This document shows positions 8,451 to 17,962 of a DNA stretch of 32,000 bases, one piece after another (within the stretch, counting starts at the first letter, position 1; each line of letters opens with the position of its first letter). Source of the DNA: Patescibacteria group bacterium (GTDB taxonomy: Bacteria; Patescibacteriota; Patescibacteriia; 2-01-FULL-39-33); the NCBI GenBank assembly GCA_041649575.1, contig JBAZMW010000003.1:60001-92000 (forward strand), in the 5' to 3' direction. A program made the translations under genes and the position numbers. The notes beneath the pieces are model-generated. The model saw only the letters and a list, made by a program, of their open reading frames with translations. It was not told the origin of the DNA and did no database searches.

Positions 8451-8657
8451 TTATTTTAATAATTCGTCAACTGATACGTCTAAGGCTTCAGCAATTCGTT
8501 CCATGGTCGCTAAGGTTGGATTCTTCTTACCGCTTTCAACATTACTAAGATAGGCACGATCAAGTCCCAACTTTCTGCATAAGTCGCCTTGTGTCATACC
8601 CTTTTCCTCTCTGATTCTACGGACATTAATGCCTAATTTTCTTGATGAATTTGTCAT
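8451..8657 (-). CDS. Small XRE-family HTH regulator, first gene of the R-M operon (controller-like)
   Basis: 68 aa with a classic Cro/CI-type HTH (MTQGDLCRKLGLDRAYLSNVESGKKNPTLATMERIAEAL). It ends 4 nt before hsdM. Confidence 0.85.
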   Translation of the reverse strand: MTNSSRKLGINVRRIREEKGMTQGDLCRKLGLDRAYLSNVESGKKNPTLATMERIAEALDVSVDELLK

Positions 8658-8671
8658 AATACTGCCTTACT

Positions 8672-11532: not shown

Positions 11533-14295
11533 TTATTCCTTCTCCCCCCTTCTAACATCAACCTTGCCTTTTTCGTCAAAAACAATCACGTCCCGGCGGG
11601 ACAAACGTTTTTGTAAAATATAGTTGGCTAAAACATCATCGACTTTCTCCTGAATCACCCGGCGCAATGGTCGGGCGCCAAAAACCGGGTCGAAGCCGGC
11701 GACGGACAGCTCTTCAATAAAAGAATCCGTGGCCTCCAGACCCAAACCGCGCTCCTCCAAAGTCTTGGCCACCCTAAGCAGCATCAGCCGGGCAATGCTC
11801 TTTACTTCCTCCCTGGTTAAAGGTTTGAAGATAATAATACCGTCAAAACGGTTAAGAAATTCCGGACGAAAATAAGCCAATAATTTATCATTGACCAAAT
11901 CGTCTTTAACCGATTCCACCTCCTTGCCGGCGCGAACCTGCTCTTGAATAAAAGGAGTGCAAGCATTGGAAGTGGCGATAATAATGGTGTTGGTAAAATC
12001 AATCAGCCGGCCGCGGCCATCGGTCAAACGGCCGTCATCCATCACCTGCAAAAAAATATTTAAGATGTTAAGATCGGCTTTTTCTATCTCGTCCAACAAA
12101 ACCAGGGAAAAGGGATTTTTTCTAACCGCTTCGGTCAAATGGCCCGGAGAATCCTCGGTGCCGATCAACCGATTAAGACTGGCCGTCTCCTGGTATTCTG
12201 ACATATCCAGGCGAATCATGTTTTTCTCATTGCCGAAATAAACTTCGGCCACGGCTTTGGCCAGCTCGGTCTTGCCGACACCAGTCGGACCCAAAAACAT
12301 CAGATTGGTAATTGGGCGCTTGGTGCTTCTAAGTTCGGTACGAGCACGGCGCAAAGCGGTGGAGACCATTTTAACCGCTTCGTTCTGGCCAACAATACGC
12401 TCGTGAATACGCGCTTCCAGATTTAATAGTTTTTCGCTTTCTTCCTGGGTGACTTCGGTGGCCGGTATGTTGGTAAGCTGGGAAATTATTTCGGCCACAT
12501 CCTCGCCGGTGACCACCGTCCTCTTGCCTCTGGTTTTGCTGGCCATGGTAGCCGCTTCCTCCAAAACGCTAATCGCTTTGCTGGGCAGAAATTTGTCATG
12601 AATAAAGCGGCTGGACAAATCAACGGCTTTTTCTATAGCTTCGTAGGTCAGAAAAACCCGATTGCTGTATTCGATTATTCCTGATTTTAGTTCCAAAACT
12701 TGAATCGCGCCGTCGCGGCTGACTTCCGGCACCTTAACCAGCTTGAAAACATCGTTTAAAACATTGTTGCCTTCAATGTATCTGCCATAGTCTCCGACCG
12801 TGGCGGTGGTAAAGCACAAAAAGTTGCCATTTAGCAGATATTTGGCGAAAATTTCCGAAAGATCCAGACTCTCTTCTTCGCCGGTGGTGATGCCAATCAA
12901 TTCTCTGATATTCTCCACCACCAAAATGATATTTTTAGCGCGAATAATTTCCTCCATCACTCTGATTAACCGTTCTTGAGCCTTGTCGGGCGTGGTGCCG
13001 CCAATCAAACTGGCGATATTCAAACTCATTAAGCGCTTGTCCTGCATGCTTTGGGGCACCTCCTCGGTCACCATTTTTTGGGCGATGCCCTCTATAATCG
13101 CCGATTTACCCACCCCGGGCTCGCCAACTAAAATGACATTACGCTGGCCGCCGCTCTCAATCGCGCGAAAAATTTCTTCTAGTTCCTTATCGCGGCCAAT
13201 GCAAGGGACAAAATAGCCGTATTTGGCCAAAGTGGTCAAATTCTGGCTGAAATGATCCAAAAATGGCGTGGCCAAAGCCGTCATGGCTCGATCGATATCG
13301 CCCCTGGGCTTAAAACGCGAGGCCGACCTGAAATGCAACCAGTTTTCCATTAAAATCTGCTGGAAACCCTGCCACATGACGACATTATTGATTTTATTCA
13401 AATCGGCTTCAAAATCATACATGATATTAGAGACGGTTTCATCGAGCTGGCAAGCGACATAAAACAAATCTATTACCTCCACTCGATGACGATTTTGTAA
13501 ATAGGCATTTTGATAAGCCCCGAGTAGAATTTTTCTAATCTTTAAAGAAATACCGGTCTTTTGACCGACTGGTAACTTGGCTAAAGCTTTAGCTAGTTTT
13601 TCTTCCAGTAGTTCCCGGCTGATGCCCAGACGACCAATAATCAAGGCGACTTTAGAAAATGACAAGAGCGAGGCCAATAGGTGAACCGGCTCGATCTCAT
13701 GATGTTTTAATTTCCTGGCCAATAAATAAGAACGGTTCACGGCCAGCCAAGCATCGTGGACATAGGAAAAAGAGACGTCGATTTTTCTTTTTTTGTCTAA
13801 TTGTTTGAAAAAAGAAAAATTACCAATCCTTTCACTGGCCAATAAATTGTCATCGGCCGATTGGTATTTTTTTTCTTTGATCTTTTTCTGCCGGTCGGCC
13901 TCGCGGCTCAAACGATAAAAAAGATAGAGGTCGGTTACCAGACTTAGCCAAAAAACAGAAGCCCAAAAACCCTCCAAAAACAACAGATTGGTCTGAGGCG
14001 ACAGCGGGCTAGTTCCCCAAATCAGCCGCAGCTGCCAAATCAGAGAAATAATACCAACAGCTCCAAAAACCCAAAGCAGACTGTTTATAATTATTTTAAA
14101 AATGTTTCGGATCTGATTTTCTAAAACCGCCGAAGAGTTTATGCTTTTGCCCCAAAACAACAAAACGTCGCCCAGCCACAGGCCAAGCGAGCGTCCTTGG
14201 CAGACAGGACACGGCGCTCCGTTTACTTCTCCCCTGCCTTGGCAAGAAGAGCAAAGTAAATAATCCAATTTTTTTTCGTTTGTTTTAGCCGACAT
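11533..14295 (-). CDS. ClpB/ClpC-family double AAA+ ATPase with N-terminal DnaJ-type zinc finger and predicted transmembrane segments
   Basis: 920 aa. N-terminal CSSCQGRG...CPVCQGRS, then hydrophobic helices (LLWVFGAVGIISLIW, FWASVFWLSLVTDLYLF). Clp_N-like repeats follow. Walker A motifs are GEPGVGKSA and GPTGVGKTELAK; Walker B is LLDEIEKA. Confidence 0.9.
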   Translation of the reverse strand: MSAKTNEKKLDYLLCSSCQGRGEVNGAPCPVCQGRSLGLWLGDVLLFWGKSINSSAVLENQIRNIFKIIINSLLWVFGAVGIISLIWQLRLIWGTSPLSPQTNLLFLEGFWASVFWLSLVTDLYLFYRLSREADRQKKIKEKKYQSADDNLLASERIGNFSFFKQLDKKRKIDVSFSYVHDAWLAVNRSYLLARKLKHHEIEPVHLLASLLSFSKVALIIGRLGISRELLEEKLAKALAKLPVGQKTGISLKIRKILLGAYQNAYLQNRHRVEVIDLFYVACQLDETVSNIMYDFEADLNKINNVVMWQGFQQILMENWLHFRSASRFKPRGDIDRAMTALATPFLDHFSQNLTTLAKYGYFVPCIGRDKELEEIFRAIESGGQRNVILVGEPGVGKSAIIEGIAQKMVTEEVPQSMQDKRLMSLNIASLIGGTTPDKAQERLIRVMEEIIRAKNIILVVENIRELIGITTGEEESLDLSEIFAKYLLNGNFLCFTTATVGDYGRYIEGNNVLNDVFKLVKVPEVSRDGAIQVLELKSGIIEYSNRVFLTYEAIEKAVDLSSRFIHDKFLPSKAISVLEEAATMASKTRGKRTVVTGEDVAEIISQLTNIPATEVTQEESEKLLNLEARIHERIVGQNEAVKMVSTALRRARTELRSTKRPITNLMFLGPTGVGKTELAKAVAEVYFGNEKNMIRLDMSEYQETASLNRLIGTEDSPGHLTEAVRKNPFSLVLLDEIEKADLNILNIFLQVMDDGRLTDGRGRLIDFTNTIIIATSNACTPFIQEQVRAGKEVESVKDDLVNDKLLAYFRPEFLNRFDGIIIFKPLTREEVKSIARLMLLRVAKTLEERGLGLEATDSFIEELSVAGFDPVFGARPLRRVIQEKVDDVLANYILQKRLSRRDVIVFDEKGKVDVRRGEKE

Positions 14296-14704: not shown

Positions 14705-15724
14705 TTAAAAAACCCGTTCTAACTTATATAGCCAATAATAATTTAATAATCTCTCACGCACCTTATGACCATTGCCGTGGCTTAACAGCCCTAAATATGA
14801 TTGCAAAGTCGCGTTAGTCGGACTAATCTTAATTCTATTTATGGACTTTCTCTTGGTGGTATTCCGCAATACCCGATGGTCAGTAAAATGAACCCAACCA
14901 AGATAATCAACTCCCGAGGCCATTGTTCTTATGGATATTTTATTGGGATGAAGAGTGAGCTTTAATTCCTTAGACAAAAATTGACCTATTTCTGGTAATA
15001 TTTTTTCTAGATACTCTTTGTCGTCATTGAGAACCATAAAATCATCGGCATAGCGCAAGTAATATTTCACTTTTAATTTATGTTTTACCCATTGATCAAA
15101 ATCATTCATGTAGACATTGGCCAGTAGTTGCGAAGTGAGATTGCCAAGTGGCAGCCCGATATCCTGGCCGTAAATCTTACTATCATAACTCTCAATTACC
15201 TCGTCGAGCAGACTCATAATATCTCGGTCGGGAATATAGCGGGATAAGCTATCCATAAGGATTTTATGATCGATACTGTCAAAAAATTTCCTGATGTCAC
15301 ATTTCAAAACCCAGCAGGTGCGAGAGTGATTTTTGCTTGTTTTGTAGGCCAAAGCACGGAATCTGTTCATCGCTTTATGCATTCCCTTATCATTGCGGCA
15401 AGAGAAAGAATCGGCGATAAAAGTCCTGTCAAAAAAGGGATAAAGAATTCGATAGATAGTATGATGAATCAAGCGGTCGCGGACGCTGGCTTTGTGGATA
15501 TGCCGACGCTTAGGATCGGTTATATAGAAATCAACATAGCCGCCATGACAGTATGTTCGATTGGCCAAATCCTCGTTTAATGATAAAATATTGTCGAGCA
15601 GGTTACGAGAAAATATTTGGACGTCCAGCTTCATTTTTTTGCCAACGATAAATTCTCGCCACGCGGAAAATAAATTTTCTAAATCAATAATCGAATTATA
15701 GTTATGGCTCAGTTGGATTTTCAT
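14705..15724 (-). CDS. Diversity-generating retroelement reverse transcriptase
   Basis: RT motifs include the DGR-typical IGLPLGNLTSQ and the catalytic YADD (YLRYADDFMVL). I prefer the ATG at 15724, preceded by AAAGGA, over the track's TTG start at 15784. Confidence 0.9.
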   Translation of the reverse strand: MKIQLSHNYNSIIDLENLFSAWREFIVGKKMKLDVQIFSRNLLDNILSLNEDLANRTYCHGGYVDFYITDPKRRHIHKASVRDRLIHHTIYRILYPFFDRTFIADSFSCRNDKGMHKAMNRFRALAYKTSKNHSRTCWVLKCDIRKFFDSIDHKILMDSLSRYIPDRDIMSLLDEVIESYDSKIYGQDIGLPLGNLTSQLLANVYMNDFDQWVKHKLKVKYYLRYADDFMVLNDDKEYLEKILPEIGQFLSKELKLTLHPNKISIRTMASGVDYLGWVHFTDHRVLRNTTKRKSINRIKISPTNATLQSYLGLLSHGNGHKVRERLLNYYWLYKLERVF

Positions 15725-16096
15725 AATAATTCCTTTAAGTCCCCCCCCCCAACGGGTTTTGATAATTTTCCAATTTTGACGCAATTAAAGGAAGGGTATA
15801 AATTGTGGCACGGCTTCTTAAATCGCCTGCCTCGCACTACGCGCTATACTCTGGGGACAAAAATCGATAATATCTTTACGGATTTAATTGCCACCGCCTT
15901 AACCGCCAAGTTTGCCAGACAAGATGAAAAAATTATCAGGCTAAAACAAATCAGCGAGGGTCTTGATCATCTCAAATACTTTCTGACGATACTGTGGGAA
16001 ATAAAAGGGATAGACAGTGGCAAACTCTCCGCTTTGGGCAGTCGTCTGGCTGCCGTCGGAAAAATGGTCGGCGGATTACTCAAGTCAATTTCATAA
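15704..16096 (+). CDS. avd: Avd-like four-helix-bundle protein (23S rRNA intervening-sequence protein family), DGR accessory
   Basis: FDNFPILTQLKEGYKLWHGFLNRLPRTTRYTLGTKI...AVGKMVGGLLKS matches the four-helix-bundle/Avd pattern, including the C-terminal GKMxGG motif. ATG 15704 is the only ATG upstream of the first helix. The gene is divergent from the RT, and the two 5' ends overlap. Confidence 0.8.
   Translation: MAQLDFHNNSFKSPPPTGFDNFPILTQLKEGYKLWHGFLNRLPRTTRYTLGTKIDNIFTDLIATALTAKFARQDEKIIRLKQISEGLDHLKYFLTILWEIKGIDSGKLSALGSRLAAVGKMVGGLLKSIS
15741..15750. repeat. C10 (G10 on the minus strand) homopolymer tract
   Basis: Ten consecutive C. They lie inside codons 13-16 (SPPP) of the avd ORF and 17-26 nt upstream of the RT ATG. 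Confidence 0.95.
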
Positions 16097-16140
16097 AAAG
16101 GAAAAGAAGGTCTCAAAAACCTTCTTTTCCTTTTTATTTT
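16097..16140. terminator. Strong bidirectional hairpin terminator after avd, between TR and the RT
   Basis: Perfect 15-bp stem aaaggaaaagaaggt / accttcttttccttt (16097-16133) with loop ctcaaaa. There is a T-run on the + strand and an A/T-rich flank on the other side. Confidence 0.75.
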
Positions 16141-16148
16141 CACATCAT

Positions 16149-16256
16149 CAGGAGCACGAAGCCGATATTGTCGTTGCCATTCTCGTCCCAGTTGTTGCAG
16201 TTGAGCCCGTTGTCGTCGAAGTTGCCAGCAATGAGACGATTGCCGTCGTTCAAGGT
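16149..16256 (-). repeat. DGR template repeat (TR)
   Basis: 108 nt, identical to 16707-16814 except at 21 positions. At 20 of these, this copy has A (minus strand). It contains 7 AAC and 3 AAT codons in the VR reading frame. Confidence 0.85.
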
Positions 16257-16682
16257 CAATCAATAGTTGTGAATATTGTCTTCCAAAACACCGCCCATTG
16301 AGTTCTCTCTGGGCTGAACCGTATTTGGGGTCATGAGCCCACCAACAATAAACACGGGGTGTGAAAAATGTCCTTGGGATAATTTCCTTGCTCTGGCGCG
16401 ATCCTTAGACAACGCCATTCGGAAGAATAAATTACCTTGTTCTGCGGGCTGGCGTCCGTGGAGACCAGCTAAGTTTAACTTCGCAGTAATGGTAATTATA
16501 TCACAATCGAAAATTTTTATGAAGATAGATATCTGCATTAGCTCCTCGGCTCGAAAATTTAAAAGATTACTTTTACATTTCTCTCGCTCTACGTCGCTTA
16601 TAAAAAAGAGAGGCCTCGGTGCGATGACCAAGGTCTCAAGTGTCCAAGTGTCCAACAATCCGAGGCGAGAGCGCCAAGGATC

Positions 16683-17411
16683 CTACTTACCGAGCTTCTC
16701 CACCCCCAGGAGCACGAAGCCGATCATGCCGTCGCCACCCTCGCCCCAGTCGCGGCAGCGGAGCCCGACGCCGCCGAAGCCGCCAGCAATGAGACGACTG
16801 CCGTCGCGCAAGGTGTCAGACGCCATGTAGAGACGATTCAGCGGTACACGTTCGCCCGTACGCTTGAAATGCGCGAGGATAAGAGCGAACTGAAGCTGAA
16901 TCGAGCCGAATGTTGTGGCGTGATTACCGGGCAATTCGTAGCGCTGTTTGAGTTCGGCGCGGTGCTTTTCCATCGCTTTGATGTTCTTACCCGTGCTGTT
17001 TTCTGCCAGGCGAGGAATCCAGAACACCAAGCAATCGTCGGTGGGGTTGTCGTTGAAATTCCAGCTCTGGAGGTAGCCGAGATTCTCGTAGCAAGGACCG
17101 ACAATCGGGGCGTGCTTCTTCAACGTGAAGCCCTGCTTGATAAGCCATACAACAGGCCCCGTGTAGCCCATCAGAGCCGCCAGTTTACGCCAGGGGGCGA
17201 GACGGTCTGTGAACTGTGGGAACTGCTCCAGCATCTTACTATCGGATAAGGGAATGGCGAAAGTATTCGCGATTTCTTCTTGCACGAGTGCGGCGAGGAA
17301 CTCTTTCACCTTTCCTGGCTTATCGGCAAAAACCGACATCTCTTCATCGCTGAGGCCATTAAGTGTGGCCAATACCGATACTGCACTTGCCTTACGGTCT
17401 GTCGTCTTCAT
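16683..17411 (-). CDS. DGR target protein with C-terminal variable region (C-type-lectin-like VR pattern ...NxGF...)
   Basis: 242-aa ORF. Its last roughly 40 aa (TLRDGSRLIAGGFGGVGLRCRDWGEGGDGMIGFVLL) are encoded by the VR. No signal peptide is evident. The gene is G+C-rich and has its own consensus promoter. Confidence 0.85.
   Translation of the reverse strand: MKTTDRKASAVSVLATLNGLSDEEMSVFADKPGKVKEFLAALVQEEIANTFAIPLSDSKMLEQFPQFTDRLAPWRKLAALMGYTGPVVWLIKQGFTLKKHAPIVGPCYENLGYLQSWNFNDNPTDDCLVFWIPRLAENSTGKNIKAMEKHRAELKQRYELPGNHATTFGSIQLQFALILAHFKRTGERVPLNRLYMASDTLRDGSRLIAGGFGGVGLRCRDWGEGGDGMIGFVLLGVEKLGK
16707..16814 (-). repeat. DGR variable repeat (VR)
   Basis: Counterpart of the TR. At 20 of the 29 TR adenines it carries G, C or T. 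The 3'-terminal 16 nt (cggcttcgtgctcctg) are A-free and identical in both copies. Confidence 0.85.
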
Positions 17412-17750: not shown

Positions 17751-17769
17751 ATACTAACTGTTATACTTG

Positions 17770-17842
17770 AGCCGTTGATCGGATTTGAACCGATGACCTA
17801 CTCCTTACCATGGAGTTGCTCTACCAACTGAGCTACAACGGC
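17770..17842 (-). tRNA. tRNA-Thr (anticodon GGU), no encoded CCA
   Basis: GCCGTTG TA GCTC AGTTGGTA GAGC A ACTCC ATGGTAA GGAGT AGGTC ATCGG TTCAAAT CCGAT CAACGGC T. 73 nt. Confidence 0.9.
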
Positions 17843-17962
17843 ATATAGATTGTTTTGATTAATTACAGCTTACAATCAGACTGGATCCAACTGAGCTATC
17901 CGCCTCGGCTCGCCTTGCTCGCCAAGGCGAGACGGGCAACGGCTTATAGATTGTTTTTGATT
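17836..17962 (-). repeat. 25/26-nt direct repeat (tRNA-Thr first 7 nt plus upstream flank) bracketing a 76-bp G+C-rich hairpin / tRNA-like remnant
   Basis: caacggcatatagattgttttgatt (17836-17860) matches caacggcttatagattgtttttgatt (17937-17962). The insert holds a 9-bp hairpin ctcgccttg-gcgag-caaggcgag and the D-arm-like GGCGGATAGCTCAGTTGGAT (minus strand). Confidence 0.6.

Follow-up and report, generated by a model that had tools for sequence, protein, structure and literature searches.

A slippery repeat within avd as a candidate phase-variation switch of diversity-generating retroelements in Patescibacteria

Introduction

In the diversity-generating retroelement (DGR) of Bordetella phage BPP-1 (mtd-avd-TR-brt, where TR is the template repeat), Avd is a required partner of the reverse transcriptase (RT); its gene is co-directional, lies upstream of TR, has a plain start and is not known to contain a repeat, and regulation is not known to involve slippage. 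Knowledge of how DGR activity is regulated comes largely from a few model systems. A large share of the known DGRs is held by the bacteria of the candidate phyla radiation (Patescibacteria). Here, we analyse a DGR from one such bacterium, located in a 32,000-nucleotide stretch of DNA (GenBank assembly GCA_041649575.1, contig JBAZMW010000003.1, positions 60,001 to 92,000; hereafter the window, in whose numbering positions are given unless stated otherwise). Its avd gene contains a run of ten C residues, and the frame of the gene relative to such a run, in this element and in its relatives, is the subject of this report.

The window DGR resembles that of BPP-1 in that it has an RT, an Avd protein of the same Pfam family (bAvd) and adenine-specific mismatches between TR and the variable repeat (VR). 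However, its avd is inverted and carries a repeat, unlike the co-directional, repeat-free gene of BPP-1. With regard to gene order, the element is a member of architecture B3, TR-(avd)-RT, as given for bacteria of the candidate phyla radiation in the legend of Figure 5 of Wu et al. (2018, NAR; PMC5758913): the order is the same, avd is inverted, and the target gene with its VR lies upstream of TR. A search of the text of that paper for the relevant terms found no description of a repeat tract, of overlapping avd and RT starts or of a split avd frame, and a full-text literature search found no publication describing a repeat tract or a split frame in avd.

A second group of comparable systems comprises the poly-G/poly-C contingency loci of Campylobacter jejuni, Neisseria, Haemophilus and Helicobacter, in which a G/C homopolymer of approx. 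8-13 nucleotides in the 5' part of a coding sequence toggles the reading frame. As in those loci, the lengths of the avd tract cluster at 9-10, and other non-triplet repeats can substitute for the homopolymer. Moreover, Campylobacter and Helicobacter lack MutS/MutL-type mismatch repair, a feature that they share with the host of the window DGR. In contrast to the known contingency loci, the gated gene encodes an accessory protein of a hypermutating retroelement rather than a surface or restriction-modification function, the tract is located in a head-to-head overlap with the RT gene, and the hosts are uncultured Patescibacteria, in which switching is predicted from sequence comparison. What is considered here is the contingency-locus mechanism applied to a hypermutation retroelement, for which no prior description was found.

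Finally, genes whose frame is broken at a homopolymer can be rescued by transcriptional slippage, as is the case for the poly-A tracts of Buchnera and Blochmannia, for Thermus dnaX and for the transposases of IS elements. These cases also have a long homopolymer between two parts of an open reading frame (ORF) that lie in different frames, with the downstream part under purifying selection. However, the runs there consist of A or T and the frame relation is fixed where slippage is programmed, whereas the avd tracts consist of G/C, occur in three frame relations and can be replaced by dinucleotide repeats.

The repeat lies within the coding sequence of avd

The avd ORF of the window (15704-16096, forward strand; 130 aa) is in frame at C10. 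It opens with a leader (15704-15740) of ATG + 12 codons (MAQLDFHNNSFK + S), which enters the C run (15741-15750, forward strand); a translated linker (15751-15766; T-G-F-D-N) then joins the tract to the conserved N-terminus of Avd, and the Avd domain extends from about residue 22. The ORF matches the Pfam family bAvd (PF22296) with 46 bits (cut-off 40), residues 36-128 corresponding to profile positions 15-106. The original prediction, made from the window alone, had placed the run in avd codons 13-16, and these codons indeed read TCC CCC CCC CCA (SPPP). It had also named 15704 as the only upstream ATG, which is correct, the other in-frame starts (15713, 15776 and 15803) all being TTG.

The DGR reverse transcriptase (14705-15724, reverse strand; 339 aa; Pfam RVT_1, 1.2e-27; LGNLTSQ and YADD motifs in the translation) shares 21 nt (15704-15724) with avd in a head-to-head overlap whose codon register is the same for both genes, and the avd leader is antisense to RT codons 1-7 and to the RT 5' leader. 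On the RT strand, the tract is a G10 run located 17-26 nt upstream of the RT ATG (15724-15722) and followed by AAAGGA (15731-15736, reverse strand), which reads as a ribosome-binding-like site; this arrangement, too, agrees with the original prediction. The repeat therefore lies both in the 5' part of avd and within the RT 5' leader. The original prediction had further suggested that the length of the tract could influence RT expression. For RT, an ATG of its own and the AAAGGA motif follow the run, and in only about half of the related loci does the RT frame stay open upstream of it.

A one-genome-per-species scan yielded 80 Patescibacteria loci with RTs 57-69% identical; the frame comparisons drew on about 100 distinct Patescibacteria DGR loci (75, 103 or 105, depending on the test). 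Read on the other strand, the avd ATG at 15704 forms RT codon 7 (His). This codon is CAT in 75 of 75 loci, compared with 867 CAT and 620 CAC (58% CAT) at the other His codons of the same RT genes, and the chance of such uniformity under this background is approx. 1e-18. The frame that starts at this ATG remains open as far as the tract in 74 of 75 loci, as against 8 and 12 of 75 for the other two frames. Where the RT lacks His7, an alternative ATG, often within CATATG, opens a frame into the tract, and no tract locus was found without one. On the other side of the repeat, the segment from the tract to the Avd N-terminus (L-P-I/V-L/I-Q-K) has no stop among 518 codons in the Avd frame in 105 distinct loci, with 50 of 496 and 8 of 454 in the other frames. 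The residues upstream of TTG 15803 (L-P-I/V-L/I-Q-K...Y-K-L-W) are conserved as protein in more than 70 loci, in which all four synonymous codons are used for Pro. In 28 loci, ATG, GTG and TTG are all absent near the Avd N-terminus.

Because the ATG is conserved, the leader frame is open and the stretch from the tract to Avd is free of stops, the tract is read as coding within avd. With high confidence, avd thus appears to consist of an ATG leader, a repeat and the Avd body, overlapping RT head to head, and the use of ATG 15704 as its start, as originally proposed, is borne out by the comparison. The view that this ATG arises by chance from RT coding and that the tract is a non-coding 5' leader is overturned by the frame tests. 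As had also been predicted, a single C more or less breaks the gene: in silico, C7, C10 and C13 give products of 129-131 aa, and C8, C9, C11 and C12 give 18-25 aa (24 aa for C9 and 19 aa for C11). An automatic gene caller reported a 97-aa ORF for the window avd and a 79-aa ORF for that of its closest relative.

Occurrence of the tract in the host genome and in related elements

The host genome (G000) comprises 920 kb in five contigs, with 44% G+C and 97.9% completeness. G/C runs in it become approx. 7-fold rarer with each additional base (413, 59 and 8 runs of length 5, 6 and 7, respectively). Only six runs of eight or more exist in the 920 kb, and two of these are located at the avd/RT junctions of the two DGRs of this genome, namely C10 in the window (DGR1) and C15 at G000:C3:189649-189663 (DGR2). 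The C10 run is not due to chance. The remaining four runs, of 8-9 (C1:107004, C1:218024, C4:45851 and C4:55583), have no obvious 5'-coding context, and the G8 run at C1:107004 lies approx. 40 nt upstream of an ORF starting at 107051.

The RT has more than 7,000 homologues at E<=1e-100, which belong to Patescibacteria wherever the source names the organism. In all of the 80 scanned loci that include upstream DNA, avd is divergent from RT and starts a few tens of nucleotides away. A G run of 7-17 on the RT strand (mode 9-10) occupies the avd/RT interval in 69 of 72 genome-derived loci; it is also present in most metagenome loci with an RT identity of at least 55% and in 13 loci of the same family, always with G on the RT-sense strand. 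The slippery motif is kept as a homopolymer in most loci and takes another form in four. In three of these, (GT)8-13 replaces the G run, and each of the three is sister to a poly-G locus in the RT tree (supports 100/100, 99/91 and 91/93); in the fourth, L179, which belongs to the same family, the replacement is (GA)8. The tree indicates that the (GT)n substitutions are three independent events; (GA)n arose once. Both replacement repeats are non-triplet and free of stops in the avd sense.

The tract can also be missing. It was lost in L023 relative to a G8 sister locus, and it is lacking in a distant sister clade of DGRs (a subset of L125-L168, e.g., L128-L133), in which the start codons of avd and RT are adjacent or overlapping (CATG, CATAATATG). 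In this clade, Avd begins with M-(D/N)-x-F-D-(I/V)-P-I-F, and the linker of the window, T-G-F-D-N, resembles this M-x-x-F-D-I-P-I-F N-terminus. The tract-less clade is a natural 'unswitched' comparator. Among 33 genomes searched, no close orthologue of the same family was found (RT identity 63% or less), and an exact-flank pattern scan of metagenome contigs for the window locus gave no match.

Several further features of individual loci should be mentioned. Three unrelated loci (L014, L047 and L077) have an insertion of approx. 90-120 nt between the G or GT tract and the RT ATG, flanked by inverted repeats (CCCGTTAGAAA ... TTTCTAACGGG), which could be a small mobile or structured element. Upstream of RT in L077, a G17 tract precedes a scaffold gap of 10 N and then a 51-nt C run, which most likely arose as an artefact of assembly or scaffolding. 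In L010, avd is in frame with its own ATG and has a TGA at the conserved Trp of Y-L-L-W-H, which reflects either a broken copy or a sequencing error.

Frame state and selection among relatives

Comparison of tract lengths among relatives, which the original prediction had proposed, shows that the length is not fixed at 10: it ranges from G7 to G17, and all three frame relations occur. Relative to the first open ATG, the Avd body is in frame in 21 of 103 loci, at +1 in 54 and at +2 in 28, which is not the fixed relation expected of programmed recoding. Mapped on the RT tree, the frame state requires 32 changes, about as many as shuffled labels do (32.7 +/- 2.2), and the same holds for tract length; the frame relation is without phylogenetic signal. 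The window copy is in frame at C10, as are three of the four loci with dinucleotide repeats (L018, L047 and L179), the fourth (L082) being out of frame.

The closest relative overall, L195, is a 4.4-kb JGI contig with an RT 85% identical to that of the window and with nearly identical flanks. Its tract consists of G11 and a 4-nt insertion, AGAG (RT strand), and its ATG frame stops after 26 aa. Nonetheless, its Avd body is 94% identical to that of the window, with 30.5 synonymous and 9.5 non-synonymous differences (dS 0.56, dN/dS 0.065); one synonymous difference (AAT/AAC) falls in the linker between tract and Avd. These values indicate that the out-of-frame Avd body of L195 is under strong purifying selection, and because of this selection, it must be expressed at least sometimes. 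Selection thus preserves copies that are out of frame. The AGAG insertion (L195:1470-1484; CTCT in the avd sense), which lies beside G11, may show a route by which (GA)n/(TC)n tracts such as that of L179 originate.

The second DGR, repeat stability and mismatch repair

DGR2 of the same genome has the same architecture (L001:7495-10559, corresponding to G000:C3:188494-191558). In L001 coordinates, it comprises an RT of 376 aa (8625-7495, reverse strand; 57-59% identical), the C15 tract (8650-8664), an avd body from 8673, and at least two VR-bearing target ORFs (10127-9537, and one that extends from 10216 up to the end of the contig). With C15, the avd of this element is out of frame, and an in-frame TAG is located immediately upstream of the tract. 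When DGR2 is aligned with a Logan contig of SRR8542065, 2,335 nt show no mismatches and a single 4-nt gap, G15 versus G11, which may have arisen as an artefact in the assembly or sequencing of a long G run; avd is also out of frame at C11 of this second assembly.

With regard to repair, MutS (PF00488) and MutL (PF01119) were not found in the 97.9%-complete genome, in a search whose controls were positive. The genome encodes EF-P.

A proposed slippage switch of avd

It is reasonable to propose that the ATG antisense to RT codon 7 serves as the start of avd and that translation would pass through the leader and the repeat (Pro-Pro-Pro) into the four-helix-bundle body of Avd. Replication slippage would add or remove repeat units, and the body would enter or leave the frame of the ATG because the repeat is slippage-prone and its units are not multiples of three. 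The absence of MutS and MutL should make such slippage frequent. The outcome would be a heritable, reversible and random on/off switch of Avd and, since Avd is required in the Bordetella DGR, of mutagenic retrohoming. In this genome, DGR1 would be in the ON frame (C10) and DGR2 in an OFF frame (C15, and C11 in the second assembly).

Phase variation is favoured because there are three kinds of repeat, three frames without phylogenetic signal, no mismatch repair and one tract that differs between assemblies. With confidence slightly above even, it is suggested that the tract sets the avd frame and gates DGR activity by heritable slipped-strand phase variation; frequent switching at the DNA level, with control of DGR activity, is what we infer from sequence comparison.

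Several observations weigh against this proposal. As stated above, the G15/G11 difference at DGR2 could be an assembly or sequencing artefact. The DGR1 tract is G10 in both assemblies (the Logan contig of SRR8542065 is 100% identical over 5,494 nt), and tract lengths are equal in four pairs of near-identical loci from different metagenome records. The excess of the +1 relation (54/103) and the in-frame state of three of the four dinucleotide loci fit rescue at the RNA level at least as well. TTG is found at the first conserved Avd codon in about 40% of loci, which makes some internal initiation possible. Finally, it is for the Bordetella DGR, and not for this clade of Patescibacteria, that Avd is known to be required.

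A wider version of the proposal, put forward tentatively and with clearly lower confidence, is that a very large clade of Patescibacteria DGRs possesses a built-in, stochastic second-order switch that chooses the cells that hypermutate, in which the DNA frame would be the heritable ON/OFF state and RNA slippage a length-dependent leak.

Alternative explanations

The alternative that survives best is reconciliation of the frames at the RNA level. RNA polymerase would slip on the 9-10-nt run, or the ribosome on CCC-C, a low and roughly constant amount of full-length Avd would be made at each locus irrespective of its DNA frame, and the tract would be a programmed recoding site that keeps the Avd dose low instead of an on/off switch. 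This explanation, which is judged rather unlikely, could reconcile the out-of-frame consensus DNA of approx. three quarters of loci with the strong purifying selection on the out-of-frame L195. The commonest relation, +1, would be correctable by a +1 slip on CCC-C or by a 1-nt deletion in the transcript; the dinucleotide repeats, on which no RNA slippage is expected, are mostly in frame; and tract lengths cluster at 9-10, near the threshold of transcriptional slippage, which is known from work on A/T runs. However, the occurrence of all three relations is at odds with the fixed direction of known programmed frameshifts, L082, one of the dinucleotide loci, is out of frame, some tracts are as short as 7-8, and the EF-P of this genome limits polyproline stalling and slipping. 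Slippage at the DNA level and at the RNA level can coexist.

A second alternative, which is considered improbable, places the start of Avd beyond the tract, with TTG 15776, TTG 15803 or some non-canonical codon in this role. The tract would then be a shared 5'-leader or promoter element that tunes avd and/or RT by its length, and the ATG frame would be a leader, an upstream ORF or a by-product of RT. The first conserved Avd codon is TTG in 30 of 74 loci, and many loci have GGA(G)-like motifs between the tract and this codon. In the window, TTG 15803 is preceded by AAGGAAGGG, and the 97-aa ORF picked by the gene caller starts there; moreover, the in-frame TAG of DGR2 lies just upstream of the tract. 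Nevertheless, it is only the Avd frame that is free of stops between the tract and the N-terminus, 28 loci offer none of ATG, GTG and TTG in its vicinity, and the invariant CAT at RT His7 would be left unexplained. TTG 15803 in particular, which the original prediction had named as the start whose function would speak against a switch, is disfavoured by the protein-level conservation, with synonymous variation, of the residues upstream of it. Upstream-ORF or translational coupling was rejected, given that the ATG-frame stops of out-of-frame loci are spread over positions between -31 and +122 nt from the Avd N-terminus, a geometry unlike that of termination-reinitiation.

Very improbable is the last alternative, in which the tract would act by its G-richness or DNA structure (G-quadruplex, H-DNA, Z-DNA or R-loop) in a divergent control region or be a neutral hotspot or sequencing artefact. 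In its favour, the G residues invariably occupy the RT-sense strand, Z-DNA can be formed by (GT)n and a quadruplex by long (GU)n RNA, and the L077 scaffold has an obvious homopolymer artefact nearby. Against it, (GA)8 and (GT)8 (too short for the quadruplex fold) share no structure with G10, and a purely structural role does not predict the coding-frame signals. Moreover, the tract occupies an equivalent position in more than 100 independent assemblies and occurs twice in this genome, for which neutrality and artefact both fail to account. G-quadruplex, pUG-fold and Z-DNA were rejected in view of the (GT)8 and (GA)8 replacements, and a Rho-loading or unstructured C-rich leader was rejected as well, as it leaves the frame signals unexplained.

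Other features of the locus

The gene order of the window DGR is target/VR - TR - (avd, opposite strand) - RT. TR (16149-16256, reverse strand) was identified by TR/VR comparison, and VR (16707-16814, reverse strand) lies at the 3' end of the target gene (16683-17411, reverse strand), an ORF of 242 aa without a Pfam match. The repeats are 108 nt long and 81% identical; 27 mismatches fall at TR adenines, and those at T, G or C are few and located mostly in the flanks beyond the repeat. Between the two assemblies, the VR does not differ. The locus therefore combines a DGR-type RT, an adenine-biased TR/VR pair whose VR ends the target ORF, and an Avd protein.

Between the avd stop and TR, an 11-bp hairpin (GGAAAAGAAGG / CCTTCTTTTCC, 9-nt loop; 16100-16140) with T runs on both strands was recognised by eye and looks like a bidirectional terminator. 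If so, it would end the transcripts of avd and TR, and the TR RNA may not run through antisense avd. A terminator scan of 15400-16400 called none, the scanner being limited to loops of 8 nt, which is shorter than the 9-nt loop of this hairpin. A promoter scan of the same interval was uninformative, with five sites compared with 2.0 +/- 1.6 expected.

Downstream of RT, positions 11533-14295 (reverse strand) encode a 920-aa ClpB-like AAA+ protein with an N-terminal cysteine-rich CxxC stretch and hydrophobic segments. An inverted repeat (15686-15716 / 17824-17854) was also noted, in which tRNA-Thr (17769-17842) pairs with the avd leader (ATGGCTCAGTTGG), whose sequence is similar to a tRNA D-arm; this is probably a coincidence.

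Concluding remarks

If the proposed switch is real, a conserved slippery repeat that sets the avd frame would be the first general control point for DGRs. It would also account for the fact that automatic annotation truncates or misses avd in these genomes. In surveys of DGRs, avd ORFs interrupted at the tract should then be treated as intact but switched genes, not as pseudogenes. Within a population, only sub-populations would diversify their targets at any time, and, if the switch extends to the whole clade, populations of these ultra-small symbionts would practise bet-hedging in the timing of target protein diversification.

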